In this document: positions 54,568-60,564 of the stretch, in pieces | Layout: the number at the start of each line of letters is the position of its first letter | How positions within the stretch are numbered: the stretch's first letter is position 1 | Source: Escherichia coli | GTDB lineage: Bacteria > Pseudomonadota > Gammaproteobacteria > Enterobacterales > Enterobacteriaceae | Assembly (NCBI RefSeq): GCF_003334305.1 | Contig: NZ_QOWS01000004.1 | Direction: 5' to 3' (one strand) | Length of the DNA stretch: 64,000 nucleotides | The notes under the pieces: model-generated | Seen by the model: only the letters and a program-made list of their open reading frames with translations | Databases searched by the model: none | Told to the model about the DNA's origin: nothing | Position numbers and translations under genes: made by a program

Positions 54568-55238
54568 CGTTAAATAAGATATCTTATCGCTGGCCTGGCG
54601 CGGCAACGGATTGTCTTTGCGACATTTCTCTGCAACTCAAACAAGGTGAATGGTTGGCGCTGACCGGCGACAATGGCGCGGGAAAATCGACGCTGTTACG
54701 AGTAATGGCAGGTCTTCTTACGCCCACAGCCGGTACGGTTATGCTGCAACAACAGGCGATGAAAAACCTGAAAAACCGCCAGCGCGCGGCAAAGGTTGGC
54801 GTACTGTTTCAGGAAGCGGAAAACCAACTTTTTCACAGCACCGTCGCTGACGAGATCGCATTTGGTTTGAAACTGCAAAAATGCCCGGCGGATGAAATCA
54901 CTCAACGTACCCATGCTGCCCTGCAATGTTGTCAGTTAGCAGACACTGCCAACGCGCACCCGTTGGATCTGCATAGTGCGCAGCGACGGATGGTCGCCGT
55001 CGCCTGCCTGGAAGCACTCTCTCCGCCACTATTGCTGCTGGACGAGCCGAGTCGGGATTTTGACGAAAATTGGTTGAGCGTGTTTGAAAGCTGGCTGGAG
55101 AAGTGCCGCCAGCGAGGCACGAGCGTCGTAGCAATCAGTCATGACGCCGCATTTACCCGGCGTCATTTCTCTCGTGTGGTGCGACTGGAAGATGGTCTAA
55201 TCAGGAACGTTAATCCACCAGACGATATTCACCCGTAG
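54561..55238 (+). CDS. ECF transporter ATPase (A') component with degenerate signature motif
   Basis: ORF 54528..55238; likely start MLTLNKISYR at 54561 (ATGTTAA overlap with the upstream stop). Walker A GDNGAGKST, Walker B LLLLDEP, H-loop SHD; the signature position reads LHSAQRR instead of LSGGQ. Confidence 0.7.
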   Translation: MLTLNKISYRWPGAATDCLCDISLQLKQGEWLALTGDNGAGKSTLLRVMAGLLTPTAGTVMLQQQAMKNLKNRQRAAKVGVLFQEAENQLFHSTVADEIAFGLKLQKCPADEITQRTHAALQCCQLADTANAHPLDLHSAQRRMVAVACLEALSPPLLLLDEPSRDFDENWLSVFESWLEKCRQRGTSVVAISHDAAFTRRHFSRVVRLEDGLIRNVNPPDDIHP

Positions 55239-55923
55239 CGGTCATCATTAAGGTCAAATTTGCAGGCAGACTCTCTTCCAGCACCCGGCGAACATTCGGC
55301 CCGTCGGTACGGTCATAAAAAGCTTCTGCGTCTGCCAGCGATACCCCTCCCGCCAGCTTGCGCCCTACCAGTCGTTCCCGCAACGCAGTAGCTGGCGCGT
55401 TGATAAAGATCGAGAAATCACAAAATTGCGCAAGCTGGCACCACTTCTCGTCGTCCAGCAACAACCAGTTTCCTTCGACGATGACGAGTGGTGCGGTAAC
55501 GTGCAACGCATCTTCAACAGGATCATGCTTTTGTCGATCATACTGCGGCCACGTACAATCCCCTTCCACGACCTGGCACAGATTTTCCGCCAGTTTCGCA
55601 ACGTCAAATGTCTCTGGTGCGCCTTTGAAGGGGCGCAATTGATGCGCATCCAGCCAGCTATTGTAATGGTGAAAACCATCCATCGGGAGCGTCTGGATAG
55701 CGGGTAATTCAGGGTCTTGTTGCGCGAGATATTCCCAGAAGGTAGTTAAGGTAGATTTACCCGTCCCCGGCGGAGCGCAAAGAAAAACCACCGTACGTCG
55801 CTGCGGACTTACCGTCTGTAAGGCCGCCAGCATACGCAGCAACGGTTTATGCACGCGTTCTATCTCTTCATCATGGTACTGCACTTGCACGTTCAGCCCA
55901 TTCACCGTTAATTCAATTTTCAC
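55210..55923 (-). CDS. yggC: P-loop kinase-like protein YggC
   Basis: 237-aa ORF with Walker A APPGTGKST; its 3' end overlaps the convergent ECF A' gene by 29 bp. Confidence 0.88.
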   Translation of the reverse strand: MKIELTVNGLNVQVQYHDEEIERVHKPLLRMLAALQTVSPQRRTVVFLCAPPGTGKSTLTTFWEYLAQQDPELPAIQTLPMDGFHHYNSWLDAHQLRPFKGAPETFDVAKLAENLCQVVEGDCTWPQYDRQKHDPVEDALHVTAPLVIVEGNWLLLDDEKWCQLAQFCDFSIFINAPATALRERLVGRKLAGGVSLADAEAFYDRTDGPNVRRVLEESLPANLTLMMTATGEYRLVD

Positions 55924-56429
55924 GGCGTTAATTCCTTTAAGGTGGTCGTTACTGCCAGCGTCAGCGCCGTTTTGACCATTCCGCTAAAACGCGCCTCTGA
56001 CCAGACGGCGAAATCGGCGAACTTCATCGCTTTTAACGCGTCATAGAGCGTCGCATTGCAGGTTATGCTATTGACGTTGCTGATAAAATCCCAGGTCATG
56101 TCATCGGCAAATCCGGGCGTTTCATCCTGTTCGTTCAGGTAATGCCAGTACTGGGAAAAGTGCGTGATATCGGCATACAGCCATTTATCCATTTTCCCCA
56201 GCGCATAAATCAAACGCAGCGCAACATCAATATCGTCAAGCGGGCCGCTTTGGGCGAGTAACGGCTTCACTGCATATTCGACGATCTCTTCATCGTTATC
56301 GACAAACAGCGACGGCAGAAACTGGCGTATCCCCTGGAGCAAAATAGAATGCGCAGTTTTCATAAATGAAAATAAATTGTCCTGTGCATCCAGTTGCTCA
56401 AGCACATCATCTTCTGTCAGCGTCGCCAT
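55920..56429 (-). CDS. yggD: MtlR-like (mannitol operon repressor family) protein YggD
   Basis: 169-aa ORF; 4-nt overlap with yggC. Confidence 0.85.
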   Translation of the reverse strand: MATLTEDDVLEQLDAQDNLFSFMKTAHSILLQGIRQFLPSLFVDNDEEIVEYAVKPLLAQSGPLDDIDVALRLIYALGKMDKWLYADITHFSQYWHYLNEQDETPGFADDMTWDFISNVNSITCNATLYDALKAMKFADFAVWSEARFSGMVKTALTLAVTTTLKELTP

Positions 56430-56450
56430 TGGTCTTCCGATAGATCACCA

Positions 56451-58690: not shown

Positions 58691-58704
58691 TTTTACCTCT
58701 GTAA

Positions 58705-60093
58705 TCAGTGTTTATGTTCGGCGGTTAATTGATTAAATAAAGTGTCGAGTTTTGGATCGCCAATATAGTTATTAATCAATATCAGCGGTTTATCCGTAAC
58801 ACGTTTCACGCGCCCTTCCAGACTGGCATGAGTAACGACGATATCGGCATCCGCAGGCACGTTTTCTATCGCGTAATGTTTTACTTCTATTGCCAGCCCC
58901 GCTTTTTCCAGGCGTTTACGGAAGGTGGTCGCGCCCATCGCACTGGAGCCCATCCCCGCATCGCAAACAAAGGCGATACGCTTAACCCTGCTTAACGAGA
59001 ATGCACCCTCTTGTTTCATCGCCTTAACCGCATTGGCTGACTGAGCAAACTCATCTTCGCTCTCCGTTTCCACCGTTTTTTCCATCTTCAGTATCAGCGA
59101 AGTAATAGCAAAGGACACCAGGGTACCTACCGTAACACCGGCAATTGTCGCCAGGAACGAGCCTTTCGGCGTCAGTGCCAGGTAAGCAAAGATAGACCCC
59201 GGACTTGGGCCAGCCACCAGACCACCGTCCAGTAAGTTAAACATCCAGGTACCAGACATACCGCCCGCAATCATGGCAATAATAGTCAGCGGCTTCATCA
59301 GCACATATGGGAAATACAGTTCGTGGATCCCACCGAGGAAGTGAATAATCATCGCCCCGGGCGCAGAACGTTTACTCATCCCTTTACCAAACAAGGTAAA
59401 CGCCAGCAGCAGCCCCAGGCCCGGACCTGGGTTAGAGGCCACCATAAAGAAGATGGATTTACCGTTAACCGAAGCCTGTTGCATTCCCAGCGGATAATAG
59501 ACGCCCTGATCGATCGCATTATTAAGGAAAAGCACTTTCGCCGGTTCATTGATGACTGACAGCAGAGGCAGATAACCCGCATGTACCAGCGCCTCGATAC
59601 ACTCTTTGACGAAAGTATTGGCAATTAACACCGCCGGGCCGATCACTTCAAAACCCAGCAGACAAAGGAGCATCCCCGCGATACCTAATGAGAAGTTATT
59701 GATAACCATCTCAAAACCGGCAGGTATGCGTTTTTCCAGTGCCTTATCGACATATTTTATGACCAACCCACCGAGCGGCCCCATGATCATTGAGCCAAGG
59801 AACATCGGGATCTCTGCGCCAACGATCACACCAATAGTACCTATTCCGCCCATGACCGCCCCGCGTTTACCGCCGACCAGATGACCACCTGTAGAACCAA
59901 TCATCACGGGCAATAAATAGGTAATCATCGGGCCGACAATTTTGGCGAAATGTTCGTTAGGCAGCCAACCGGTGGGAATAAATAACGCAGTAATAAAACC
60001 CCAGGCAATAAAAGCACCAATATTGGGGATGACCATTGCAGTCAAAAAGCCCCCAAAAGCCTGGACCTTTGCACGAGCAGACTTGTTTTCCAT
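58705..60093 (-). CDS. cmtA: PTS mannitol-family EIICB component (cryptic mannitol transporter)
   Basis: 462-aa ORF with a polytopic EIIC domain and C-terminal EIIB containing phospho-Cys motif FVCDAGMGSS. Confidence 0.88.
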   Translation of the reverse strand: MENKSARAKVQAFGGFLTAMVIPNIGAFIAWGFITALFIPTGWLPNEHFAKIVGPMITYLLPVMIGSTGGHLVGGKRGAVMGGIGTIGVIVGAEIPMFLGSMIMGPLGGLVIKYVDKALEKRIPAGFEMVINNFSLGIAGMLLCLLGFEVIGPAVLIANTFVKECIEALVHAGYLPLLSVINEPAKVLFLNNAIDQGVYYPLGMQQASVNGKSIFFMVASNPGPGLGLLLAFTLFGKGMSKRSAPGAMIIHFLGGIHELYFPYVLMKPLTIIAMIAGGMSGTWMFNLLDGGLVAGPSPGSIFAYLALTPKGSFLATIAGVTVGTLVSFAITSLILKMEKTVETESEDEFAQSANAVKAMKQEGAFSLSRVKRIAFVCDAGMGSSAMGATTFRKRLEKAGLAIEVKHYAIENVPADADIVVTHASLEGRVKRVTDKPLILINNYIGDPKLDTLFNQLTAEHKH

Positions 60094-60120
60094 AATATTA
60101 TCCTGTAGAGGAGAGAGTAA

Positions 60121-60564
60121 TTATCCGCGGCTGATAATGTCCGCTAATTGTTTTTCTGATGATGCTGTTAAGAGTTGTTCGAGTATTTCTTCTTCGCACA
60201 GTAATTCACTTAACGCCTGAATAGCGCCAATGTGCGAATCGGCATCGGCAGCAGAGAGTCCGATGAGTAATTTAATTGGTTCGTCATTCCCCGGAAAATA
60301 AACACCTTGTTCAAGTAATGTCAAAGACATCCCGGTTTTAAGCGCCCCACATTCCGGTCGCGCATGAGGCATTGCCACGCCTGGTGCGAGAATATAATAA
60401 GGGCCATTGTTAATGGTGGAATCTTTAATTGCCTGAATGTAATTCTCGCTGATATAGTTTTTATCCAGCAATGATACCATCGAGAAATCGATAGCTTCCT
60501 GCCAATCTTTTGCTGAATGTATAACTGAGATTGATGATTCTTGAAAATAATCACTAAGCCGCAT
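60121..60564 (-). CDS. cmtB: PTS mannitol-family EIIA component
   Basis: 147-aa ORF with EIIA(Mtl) fold motif (GVAMPHARPE). Confidence 0.88.
   Translation of the reverse strand: MRLSDYFQESSISVIHSAKDWQEAIDFSMVSLLDKNYISENYIQAIKDSTINNGPYYILAPGVAMPHARPECGALKTGMSLTLLEQGVYFPGNDEPIKLLIGLSAADADSHIGAIQALSELLCEEEILEQLLTASSEKQLADIISRG

Follow-up and report, generated by a model that had tools for sequence, protein, structure and literature searches.

The window, a stretch of 64,000 nucleotides of Escherichia coli DNA, contains at positions 55210–60564 six minus-strand open reading frames (ORFs) that are identified from its ORF list as cmtB-cmtA-yggP-yggF-yggD(fumE)-yggC, and the RefSeq annotation of strain A7 (100% identical) lists all six of them, as does that of K-12 MG1655, where the layout is identical (b2934–b2928). 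Read directly from the sequence in the order from cmtB to yggC, the intergenic distances are 27 nt (cmtB-cmtA), 14 nt (cmtA-yggP), −4 nt (an ATGA overlap of yggP and yggF), 21 nt (yggF-yggD), and −4 nt (a GTGA overlap of yggD and yggC), and a purine-rich ribosome-binding site lies upstream of every one of the six starts. All six reading frames and their catalytic motifs are intact. The region was found in all of 5426 complete E. coli genomes, being at least 80% complete in 5387 of them; rare natural deletions of the cluster also occur. Five of the six products (those of cmtB, cmtA, yggF, yggD, and yggC) exceed curated NCBIfam cut-offs. A previous sequence-only reading had described six genes with gaps of 27 nt or less and 4-nt overlaps, and we recovered this arrangement at exactly the same coordinates, while the NCBIfam profile scores bore out the identities it had given to the genes. 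The region is the already named cmt-ygg cluster of E. coli and, as a discovery, is ordinary.

The first two genes encode a PTS permease. CmtB (60121–60564; 147 aa) is an enzyme IIA of the mannitol/fructose type (NF007358, 322.7 bits against a cut-off of 192), whose translation contains the IIA phosphorylation motif GVAMPHA, and CmtA (58705–60093; 462 aa) is an enzyme IICB of the mannitol family (NF011663, 592.9 against 589; TIGR00851, 480 against 468.4), whose translation contains GIHELYFP in IIC and VCDAGMGSSAMGA with the IIB Cys. The IIB Cys, the IIA His, and the IIC GIHE motif are assigned by reference to MtlA. The occurrence of FVCDAGMGSSAMGA, GVAMPHA, and GGIHELYFP in the CmtAB translations, together with scores above the family cut-offs, identifies a mannitol-family enzyme II; moreover, CmtA is 52% identical to the product of a second MtlA-like gene in the Rahnella loci. 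Published papers label CmtA as mannitol-specific by annotation, a 2024 study found that a mannitol phenotype requires mtlA and not cmtA, and deletion of cmtA in K-12 is reported to alter the tobramycin MIC. The earlier statement that the natural substrate is not established agrees with this literature.

The third gene, yggP (57413–58690), encodes a zinc-dependent MDR dehydrogenase of 425 aa, for which NCBIfam has no equivalog model and whose matches to generic MDR enzymes are weak in both NCBIfam and the PDB. YggP is 44.8% and 44.7% identical, over 97–98% of its length, to the annotated SorE proteins of true sorbose operons, and 10 YggP homologues retain without exception the Zn ligands C39, H68, E69, and E146 as well as D209 and the GPMGIG motif. 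As a long zinc MDR with the catalytic Zn site and the Rossmann motif, YggP has the sequence features of SorE; its neighbors, however, are a Mtl-family PTS and YggC, not the Man-family IIABCD permease, SorC, and SDR glucitol-6-phosphate dehydrogenase. Because this context is not that of a sorbose operon, we regard YggP as a paralogue of SorE and not as SorE itself. A sigma-54 binding site that has been mapped within yggP in K-12 is also present in the window.

YggF (56451–57416; 321 aa), annotated in K-12 as 'fructose 1,6-bisphosphatase YggF', is a paralogue of the class II (GlpX-type) fructose-1,6-bisphosphatase, as indicated by its score to TIGR00330 (586.3 against 259.3) and its similarity to the solved structure of E. 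coli GlpX (1ni9; 376 bits); cyanobacterial FBP/SBPases were also matched. YggC (55210–55923; 237 aa, GTG start) is a P-loop kinase of the PanK/Udk/PRK superfamily, belonging to the FrcK/YggC subfamily (PRK09270) by its score to NF006742 (520.4 against 402) and its Walker A motif, APPGTGKST, which is accompanied by DGFHHYN...KGAPETFD. The closest structures are the 'fructokinase' 3c8u (85 bits) and then pantothenate kinases (about 40 bits). YggC was independently predicted in 2011 to be a 'sugar/polyol kinase', in work then in progress, and the literature on FrcK up to 2023 assigns no substrate and considers a possible action on transport rather than metabolism.

YggD (55920–56429; 169 aa), annotated as FumE, is an MtlR-fold protein that passes the cut-off of the YggD equivalog (NF007455, 335.6 against 167) and thus belongs to the MtlR/YggD family, although its score to the MltR family model (85 bits) is under the cut-off. 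PDB entry 3c8g is essentially identical to YggD (365.7 bits), and the MtlR structures 6kcr and 3brj are distantly related. YggD is annotated as fumarase E, cited as verified, and a ChIP-exo study revealed no DNA binding sites for this protein, which has no HTH. The former designation as an MtlR-like regulator needs correction in view of the present annotation as fumE and the ChIP-exo result. The conserved position of YggD beside yggC inside a PTS cluster argues for a primary role other than that of a fumarase.

At its 3′ end, yggC overlaps by 29 nt (55210–55238) with the last ATPase gene of a convergent ECF cluster (54561–55238, plus strand). No intrinsic terminator was predicted between the convergent yggC and ECF units, and the overlap leaves no room for a separate one. 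The 3′ part of yggC (55210–55460) is a variable, island-linked haplotype that is about 60–70% identical to K-12 DNA. Between the window and K-12, the dS of yggC is 0.58, whereas that of the other five genes is at most about 0.10 (zero for cmtB); the allele in the window is the one typical of Escherichia, and that of K-12 is the outlier. Of the 5426 E. coli genomes, 3320 (61%) carry the ECF cluster; in E. albertii, E. whittamii, Salmonella, Citrobacter, and other genera, it is flanked by yggC and epd. Judging from this distribution, possession of the ECF cluster is the ancestral condition of Escherichia, Salmonella, and Citrobacter, and the island-free arrangement of K-12 is derived. Thus, the ECF island does adjoin the cluster, as had been noticed, but the recent arrival implied by the wording 'now abuts' is contradicted by its occurrence at the same site across genera and in 61% of E. 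coli.

The region upstream of cmtB, extending to the stop codon of tktA (60565–60877, minus strand), is AT-rich (about 37% GC) and includes the tktA intrinsic terminator (about 60835–60860). A pattern scan located two CRP-like sites (60779–60794 and 60735–60750) in these 313 bp, as compared with 32 in the whole 64 kb, and both CRP half-site blocks are conserved in 11 Enterobacteriaceae, as are blocks near the ribosome-binding site. A candidate core promoter on the minus strand is predicted with TTGACA at 60725–60720 and TATAAT at 60705–60700, separated by a short 14-nt spacer. The cmt promoter has been published to be active and CRP-dependent, and its activity, measured as PcmtA, falls in a cmtA deletion strain. 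A Biolog screen of PcmtA-GFP with 198 carbon sources gave the highest signals with uridine, bromosuccinate, and inosine, and no polyol stood out. Hence the check by phenotype microarrays that had been proposed is already partly done, with nucleosides rather than polyols at the top. In an RNA-seq study of EHEC, only cmtB was reported to be induced, with a very low read count, and a promoter catalogue of 2014 lists a separate '(yggDC)' unit. Our scan for internal terminators in the cluster gave 4 weak matches against 7.0 expected, none of which stands out. Six codirectional genes that nearly touch or overlap, with no strong terminator among them, make up the layout of an operon, and they are probably co-transcribed from the CRP-dependent promoter upstream of cmtB. 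The term 'cryptic', applied to the operon previously, is too strong for a cluster whose promoter is active and CRP-dependent and in which a cmtA deletion shifts the tobramycin MIC in K-12.

Conservation was examined in about 80 species loci, in which the homologues of EIIA, EIICB, YggP, and YggC are always collinear, from Enterobacterales and Vibrionaceae to Clostridia; the loci were gathered through YggP motifs, and this perfect co-occurrence applies only to close YggP orthologues (at least 62% identity). The gene orders, all with tiny gaps, are B-A-P-F-D-C (47 loci), B-A-P-D-C (24), and B-C-A-P (9). In Gammaproteobacteria, yggD is added and is always adjacent to, and translationally coupled with, yggC. 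A phosphatase is added in the form of the GlpX-type YggF, which is restricted to the Enterobacterales form of the cluster, or of a YcdX-like PHP protein in Vibrionaceae, where its gene directly follows the yggC homologue in 19 of 19 loci. In the Clostridia loci, the recurrent neighbors are only the four core genes and a PRD regulator, with yggC placed between the IIA and IICB genes, and in Hafnia, the same six genes lie in another chromosomal context, inside the men gene neighborhood. The dN/dS values of 0.02–0.19 across all six genes indicate purifying selection. Gene order is thus maintained across distant taxa, as expected of an operon, and the six genes very probably form one functional unit, as had been proposed from the window, in view of the order and spacing kept in 47 species loci and the four-gene core reaching Clostridia.

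Comparison with known systems reveals partial likenesses to several of them. The E. coli mtlADR operon (MtlA, IICBA; MtlD, mannitol-1-phosphate 5-dehydrogenase; MtlR) likewise combines mannitol-family IIC, IIB, and IIA domains with an MtlR-fold protein and a promoter region with several CRP sites; in the cmt-ygg cluster, however, IIA is encoded on its own, the dehydrogenase belongs to the SorE-type zinc MDRs rather than to the long-chain family of MtlD, genes for a P-loop kinase and a bisphosphatase are present in addition, and cmtA is dispensable for the mannitol-dependent phenotype. YggP shares with SorE of sorCDFBAME (Klebsiella, Citrobacter, Lactobacillus) 43–45% identity over the full length and the unusual size of about 410–425 aa, but the sor operons have a mannose-family IIABCD permease, SorC, and an SDR glucitol-6-phosphate dehydrogenase, and no YggC-like kinase. 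In the galactitol (gat) and tagatose pathways, a PTS is followed by a hexitol-phosphate dehydrogenase, a ketose-phosphate kinase, and a bisphosphate aldolase. The logic that we propose below, namely phosphorylating uptake, a zinc MDR dehydrogenase, and a second phosphorylation, resembles that of these pathways, although the kinase of the cmt-ygg cluster is of the PanK/FrcK type and not PfkB/PfkA, the PTS is of another family, and there is no dedicated aldolase gene. As in glpFKX, a close GlpX paralogue, YggF, is embedded in a carbon-source operon, here with another transporter and substrate and confined to the module as it occurs in Enterobacterales. Finally, frcBCAK of Sinorhizobium meliloti also has a gene for a PRK09270/PanK-like P-loop kinase (FrcK) in a hexose/hexitol transporter operon, but with an ABC transporter instead of a PTS and without a SorE-type dehydrogenase.

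We consider it fairly probable that the cluster is kept by selection as a self-contained catabolic module built around a PTS, probably expressed as one CRP-dependent operon. CmtB (IIA) and CmtA (IICB), which are closely related to the mannitol permease as paralogues and have intact phosphorylation sites, would take in a hexitol resembling mannitol (a ketohexose is less likely) and phosphorylate it. SorE interconverts glucitol-6-phosphate and sorbose-1-phosphate. On the strength of its 45% identity and its NAD-type fingerprint, YggP would convert the hexitol phosphate into a ketohexose 1-phosphate and vice versa; to this ketohexose 1-phosphate, YggC may add a second phosphate, giving a ketohexose 1,6-bisphosphate, most simply fructose-1,6-bisphosphate, for the housekeeping aldolase. 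This kinase step fits the Clostridia module, which consists only of IIA, IICB, YggP, YggC, and the PRD regulator. Because yggF is missing from half of the lineages, the pair of kinase and phosphatase is not core; YggF in Enterobacterales and the YcdX-like PHP phosphoesterase in Vibrionaceae may be lineage-specific accessories converting the bisphosphate to hexose-6-phosphate for biosynthesis, comparable to glpX in glpFKX. YggD, as an MtlR-fold protein that showed no DNA binding, probably makes expression or activity responsive to the phosphorylation state of the PTS and would not be a fumarase. The chances are about even that a dehydrogenase and then a kinase act on a PTS-derived sugar phosphate, and the specific chemistry from hexitol-1-phosphate through ketose-1-phosphate to the 1,6-bisphosphate is less likely than not. 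Since E. coli already has FruK, a second ketose-1-phosphate kinase would be redundant. Several observations also speak against the proposed route: no polyol stood out as an inducer in the 198-compound screen, cmtA is dispensable for the mannitol phenotype, FrcK, the only studied relative of YggC, may act on transport, and the annotation lists YggD as a verified fumarase. A single operon is opposed by the '(yggDC)' unit of 2014 and by the induction of cmtB only in EHEC.

An alternative that we judge unlikely, yet the most serious of those considered, is that catabolism involves CmtAB and YggP only, while YggC as a transporter-coupled kinase and YggD as an MtlR-fold adaptor tune transport or expression and YggF is an independent accessory FBPase. 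This would accord with the effects of FrcK on fructose uptake and on the regulation of mannitol transport without an assigned substrate, with the constant adjacency and translational coupling of yggD and yggC in Gammaproteobacteria, with the placement of yggC between the IIA and IICB genes in Clostridia, with the drop in PcmtA activity on cmtA deletion, which suggests a transporter-linked feedback, and with the absence of DNA binding by YggD in ChIP-exo. YggC, however, has the motifs of a PanK-like small-molecule kinase (DGFHHYN...KGxPETFD), and Clostridia retain yggC together with a classical PRD regulator and without yggD, so that the kinase is independent of YggD. If no dedicated enzyme is to follow YggP, its product would, moreover, already have to be a central metabolite, for which a SorE-type enzyme is an odd choice.

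Less probable still is a reductive, sorbose-like route, in which CmtAB imports a ketohexose as the ketose-1-phosphate, YggP reduces it to a hexitol-6-phosphate, and housekeeping hexitol-phosphate dehydrogenases finish the conversion. In the sor operon of Klebsiella, SorE functions as a reductase. The closest characterized relative of YggP (45%) is thus physiologically a reductase, and some permeases of the Fru/Mtl PTS superfamily form ketose-1-phosphates; on the other hand, CmtA exceeds the cut-off of the IIC model for mannitol (hexitol) and shares 52% identity with paralogues of the MtlA type, the cluster has no second dehydrogenase of the SorD type such as is found with SorE in real sorbose operons, and YggC would be left without a role.

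We regard as very improbable the view that two or more unrelated units are merely neighbors, namely a mannitol PTS (cmtBA) that is spare or cryptic, and housekeeping enzymes, YggF being an FBPase of gluconeogenesis, FumE a fumarase, and YggC a nucleoside or cofactor kinase. Current annotations do use these names, older operon tables separate yggDC, cmtB was the sole responder in one RNA-seq data set, and the sigma-54 site inside yggP of K-12 is found here too, but order and spacing are kept across orders, phyla, and chromosomal contexts, two junctions are 4-nt overlaps, and the sigma-54 motif coincides with the conserved PGGNIA codons, its exact form being confined to Escherichia. That the cluster is a decaying, functionless relic, as the historical 'cryptic' label, the very low expression in published RNA-seq, and the rare natural deletions might suggest, is scarcely credible against the low dN/dS values, the intact frames and motifs, the presence of the region in every complete genome, the active CRP-dependent promoter, and the phenotype of the cmtA deletion.

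Returning to the self-contained catabolic module as the preferred reading, we put forward, as a possibility that is less likely than not, that it represents an undescribed PTS route, in which a SorE-type dehydrogenase and a PanK/FrcK-type kinase would turn a natural hexitol (or perhaps a heptitol, for instance volemitol) into a ketose 1,6(7)-bisphosphate, with YggD/'FumE' being a PTS-coupled, non-DNA-binding regulator and not a fumarase. To our knowledge, no P-loop kinase of the PanK/FrcK-type class has so far been found to use sugar phosphates as substrates. If the proposal is true, a function would also be assigned to the FrcK family and to the plant homologue At1g03030.

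Six minus-strand genes, cmtB (60121-60564), cmtA (58705-60093), yggP (57413-58690), yggF (56451-57416), yggD (55920-56429), and yggC (55210-55923), were located by ORF calls exactly where the sequence-only reading had placed them, in agreement with the annotations of E. coli strain A7 and K-12 MG1655. From cmtB to yggC, the junction gaps are 27, 14, −4 (ATGA), 21, and −4 (GTGA) nt, and the junction sequences revealed a purine-rich ribosome-binding site (RBS) at each of them. The region 55000-60900 is 100% identical to that of A7, whose RefSeq annotation contains the same six genes, and the K-12 counterparts (b2934, b2933, b4465, b2930, b2929 (now 'fumE'), and b2928) have identical lengths and spacing. 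The cluster, flanked by tktA on one side and epd-pgk-fbaA on the other, is thus an already named set of annotated genes; the earlier observation was accurate but is a rediscovery. Every one of the 5426 complete E. coli genomes contains the region, with coverage of at least 80% in 5387. In the other 39, no single aligned stretch reaches 80%; one of them, E. coli PS3Tanimalfeces2 (locus L089), has a natural deletion equivalent to about 52180-59100 of the window, which takes away the neighboring ECF cluster, yggC, yggD, yggF, yggP, and the 3' third of cmtA.

Comparison among genomes indicates that the six genes very probably constitute one functional unit. An alignment scan with YggP over one genome per species (100,044 species) gave 117 confirmed relatives, and the six E. 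coli proteins were mapped onto the best 80 of these 117 loci and onto three loci from an exact protein look-up. The order cmtB-cmtA-yggP-yggF-yggD-yggC was found in 47 loci (Enterobacteriaceae, Hafnia, Yersinia, Serratia, Providencia, Buttiauxella, and Limnobaculum), the same order without yggF in 24 (Rahnella, Budvicia, and Vibrionaceae), and cmtB-yggC-cmtA-yggP in nine (Lachnospiraceae and other Clostridia), with three loci being cut or damaged; as the loci were gathered via YggP-specific peptides, this perfect co-occurrence can be claimed only for YggP orthologues at least 62% identical. Gaps are minimal throughout the mapped loci, with medians of 2 nt for yggP-yggF and −1 nt for yggD-yggC, and the latter pair is always translationally coupled in Gammaproteobacteria. 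The surroundings differ: in Hafnia, the six genes lie among men genes, quite unlike the E. coli neighborhood, and in Clostridia nothing recurs in the neighborhood except the four core genes (cmtB, cmtA, yggP, and yggC) and a gene for a PRD-type regulator of about 700 aa. In comparisons with E. albertii, Salmonella, Citrobacter, Klebsiella, and Buttiauxella, dN/dS values of 0.02–0.19 for all six genes revealed purifying selection. Taken together, the conserved gene order, tiny gaps, differing contexts, and purifying selection contradict both the view that the genes are unrelated neighbors and that of a decaying relic.

We infer that the six genes are co-transcribed. No terminator stood out within the cluster in a terminator scan, but scans of the cluster for intrinsic terminators and sigma-70 promoters gave fewer matches than in shuffled controls and therefore count neither for nor against co-transcription. 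A 2014 catalogue gives '(yggDC)' as a unit, and an EHEC RNA-seq study reported cmtB as the sole induced gene of the cluster, with a very low base count. A sigma-54 site inside yggP has been mapped by ChIP in K-12, and an exact copy of its motif, CTGGCGGCAATATTGCA, is present at 58154-58170 (minus strand); since the motif overlies the invariant PGGNIA codons of yggP and does not occur in this exact form outside Escherichia, we rejected it as a sign of an internal promoter or a separate unit.

Protein families were assigned from NCBIfam profile scores against the curated cut-offs. CmtB (the PTS IIA component) scored 322.7 against a cut-off of 192, and CmtA (IICB) scored 592.9 against 589, also passing TIGR00851. 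YggF reached 586.3 on the GlpX model (cut-off, 259.3), resembling E. coli GlpX and also the cyanobacterial bifunctional FBP/SBPases. YggC scored 520.4 on a 'nucleoside/nucleotide kinase family' model (cut-off, 402), with weaker matches to pantothenate and uridine kinases; its nearest structure is 3c8u, an FrcK-type 'fructokinase' (a name from annotation), followed by pantothenate kinases. YggD scored 335.6 (cut-off, 167) and is essentially identical to PDB 3c8g; it gave 85 bits on the MltR model, under the cut-off, and the MtlR structures are distant relatives. YggP has no equivalog model in NCBIfam and matches solved MDR enzymes only distantly. In tblastn searches of plasmids, YggP showed 44.8% and 44.7% identity to annotated sorE genes over 97–98% of its length and 42.7% to a Lactiplantibacillus sorE counterpart; these matches sit in textbook sorbose operons, consisting of an SorC-type regulator, an SDR, Man-family IIA/IIB/IIC/IID, and then SorE. 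Ten aligned YggP homologues all share the catalytic zinc ligands (C39, H68, E69, and E146), the GPMGIG fingerprint, and D209. Because of the identity of about 45%, the sorbose-operon context of the matched genes, and the invariant motifs, YggP is, as judged from its sequence, a SorE paralogue in a different PTS context. Overall, the permease, dehydrogenase, bisphosphatase, and kinase are intact members of their families with their catalytic or phosphorylation motifs in place, and a core of four genes is conserved.

From these identities a route can be proposed, in which CmtAB would import and phosphorylate a mannitol-like hexitol, YggP would oxidize the carbon beside the phosphate ester to give a ketohexose-1-phosphate, by analogy with SorE (glucitol-6-phosphate/sorbose-1-phosphate), and YggC would add a second phosphate. 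The resulting compound would most simply be fructose-1,6-bisphosphate and would enter glycolysis via the housekeeping aldolase. We give even chances to the general scheme of a dehydrogenase and then a kinase acting on a PTS-derived sugar phosphate, and hold the specific chemistry from hexitol phosphate through ketohexose-1-phosphate to the 1,6-bisphosphate only tentatively. The proposed route would explain why four genes suffice in Clostridia, and also the unrelated phosphatases in two proteobacterial lineages, since a substrate entering at or below fructose-1,6-bisphosphate requires a bisphosphatase for hexose-6-phosphate, as with glpX in glpFKX. None of the 19 Vibrionaceae loci (L003 and among L060-L086) has yggF, and all end with a PHP phosphoesterase gene directly after the yggC homologue; the PHP protein scored 356.8 on the PRK09248 (YcdX-like) model (cut-off, 264) and looks like a non-orthologous phosphatase at the same pathway position. 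Presumably, the GlpX-type YggF and the PHP phosphatase were added independently. YggD has no HTH and gave no peaks in ChIP-exo; a PTS-linked regulatory role like that of MtlR would suit its place in the cluster better than the fumarase role given in its annotation.

The main rival to this metabolic route gives YggC and YggD a regulatory function instead of a metabolic one. FrcK, the sole studied relative of YggC, affects fructose uptake and the regulation of mannitol transport, and no substrate is known for it. Less probably, the route may run in the reductive, sorbose-like direction.

The cluster shares features with several known systems: the permease, the MtlR-fold protein, and CRP control with the mtl operon; the SorE-type dehydrogenase with the sor operon; the proposed second phosphorylation with gat/tagatose logic; the attached class II FBPase with glpFKX; and the FrcK-type kinase inside a transporter operon with frcBCAK. 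As a whole it belongs to none of them and works like a hybrid of all five. The idea of functional linkage is not new, since a 2011 prediction based on gene clustering already made YggC a 'sugar/polyol kinase'. In Rahnella (loci L051-L055), the five-gene module without yggF lies 1.4–3.4 kb upstream of a canonical-looking mtlA...mtlR-like locus, whose permease is 52% CmtA-like and which encodes a 29% YggD-like protein; the module and an mtl-like system thus appear to coexist side by side. A transketolase gene adjoins the module in some Vibrionaceae (L060, L062, L068, L078, and L085) and in most Enterobacteriaceae loci, which could reflect either the ancient tkt-epd-pgk-fba synteny or a functional tie to ketose-phosphate metabolism.

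The tktA-cmtB intergenic region (313 bp) is AT-rich (about 37% GC) and contains the tktA terminator and, by sequence reading, a candidate promoter (TTGACA-14 nt-TATAAT). A pattern scan gave two CRP-like sites in these 313 bp (60779-60794 and 60735-60750), as compared with 32 in the whole 64 kb, and an alignment of eleven Enterobacteriaceae showed conservation of both CRP half-site blocks and of blocks immediately before the RBS. These conserved sites fit the crp dependence of PcmtA-GFP published in a 2025 study, where the activity was also lower in a cmtA deletion strain and lowest on glucose. The sequence-only reading had called the operon cryptic; the system is not silent in K-12, as deletion of cmtA raises the tobramycin MIC (2025 study). 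It had also proposed phenotype arrays on polyols and ketoses, a check that is in part already published as a Biolog screen of PcmtA-GFP on 198 carbon sources (2025 study) and whose result did not point to a polyol: the top inducers were uridine (about six-fold), bromosuccinate, and inosine, and every nucleoside was active. Furthermore, a mannitol-dependent tolerance phenotype needs mtlA, not cmtA (2024 paper). The nucleoside induction is more likely a general cAMP-CRP effect than a CytR-type one; the CRP-like sites are 44 bp apart with no conserved TGCAA-type motif between them, and the uridine response was also seen in 14 of the 18 other sugar-transporter promoters (2025 study). An Rfam search of 51000-64000 gave no structured RNA at E ≤ 0.1, and an 83-aa ORF in the AT-rich leader (60574-60825) was dismissed as spurious, being annotated nowhere and lying in a region that aligns with indels between genera.

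Beyond the 3' end of yggC lies a five-gene ECF cluster (52162-55238) encoding a PPC-domain DNA-binding protein and the ECF S, T, A, and A' components, carried by 3320 of the 5426 complete E. coli genomes (61%). The E. coli W genome paper mentions it, in the region of epd and yggC, as a 'cobalt transport system', a label from annotation only; the S component matched only the putative CD3073 family, under the cut-off. The same yggC-epd interval holds the cluster in E. albertii, E. whittamii, Salmonella enterica subspecies diarizonae and arizonae, several Citrobacter, Superficieibacter, Silvania, and Phytobacter, and one Buttiauxella has it between tktA and cmtB. A functional tie to the operon was rejected, as modules located anywhere other than between tktA and epd lack the ECF genes.

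The strain-variable segment has its boundary inside yggC. About the last 250 nt (55210-55460, about the last 82 codons) are 60–70% identical to K-12, whereas the rest of yggC and yggD are 90–100% identical, except for a patch of about 80% at 55823-55912 (yggC codons about 5–30) amid 97–100% identical DNA, whose sequence suggests mosaic recombination at the 5' end as well. The dS value against K-12 is 0.58 for yggC and at most about 0.10 for the other five genes. The C-terminus of the window YggC is 88–96% identical to those of other Escherichia species, whereas the K-12 C-terminus reaches only 62–68% amino acid identity with all the compared loci outside E. coli, from other Escherichia, Salmonella, Citrobacter, Klebsiella, and Raoultella; the sole close one (87.8%) is that of another E. 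coli without the ECF cluster. K-12 thus combines a highly divergent replacement with loss of the ECF cluster. Since the K-12 C-terminus is the outlier, the island-less K-12 haplotype is the derived, recombinant one, and the yggC 3' end of the window is the Escherichia-typical allele. The recent insertion implied by the earlier statement that the ECF island 'now abuts' the operon is contradicted by this derived state of K-12 and by the synteny in E. albertii, Salmonella, and Citrobacter. The yggC stop and the last ECF ATPase gene overlap convergently by 29 nt (55210-55238) with no terminator predicted between them, so that transcripts of both units must overlap antisense at their 3' ends. Upstream of epd, CTGAAACGCTTCAGC (51905-51930), which we take to resemble a Cra (FruR) operator, is unchanged beside the ECF cluster junction.

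The cluster is already known, and the question of its substrate is already recognized for these annotated genes. It belongs to the carbohydrate systems that are still orphans in E. coli K-12, with a practical side in that CmtAB was recently tied to aminoglycoside uptake (2025 study). Knowing the substrate would complete part of the metabolic map and show what the widespread YggC/FrcK kinases do; it would also put to the test the name 'fumarase E' as a description of what YggD really does.
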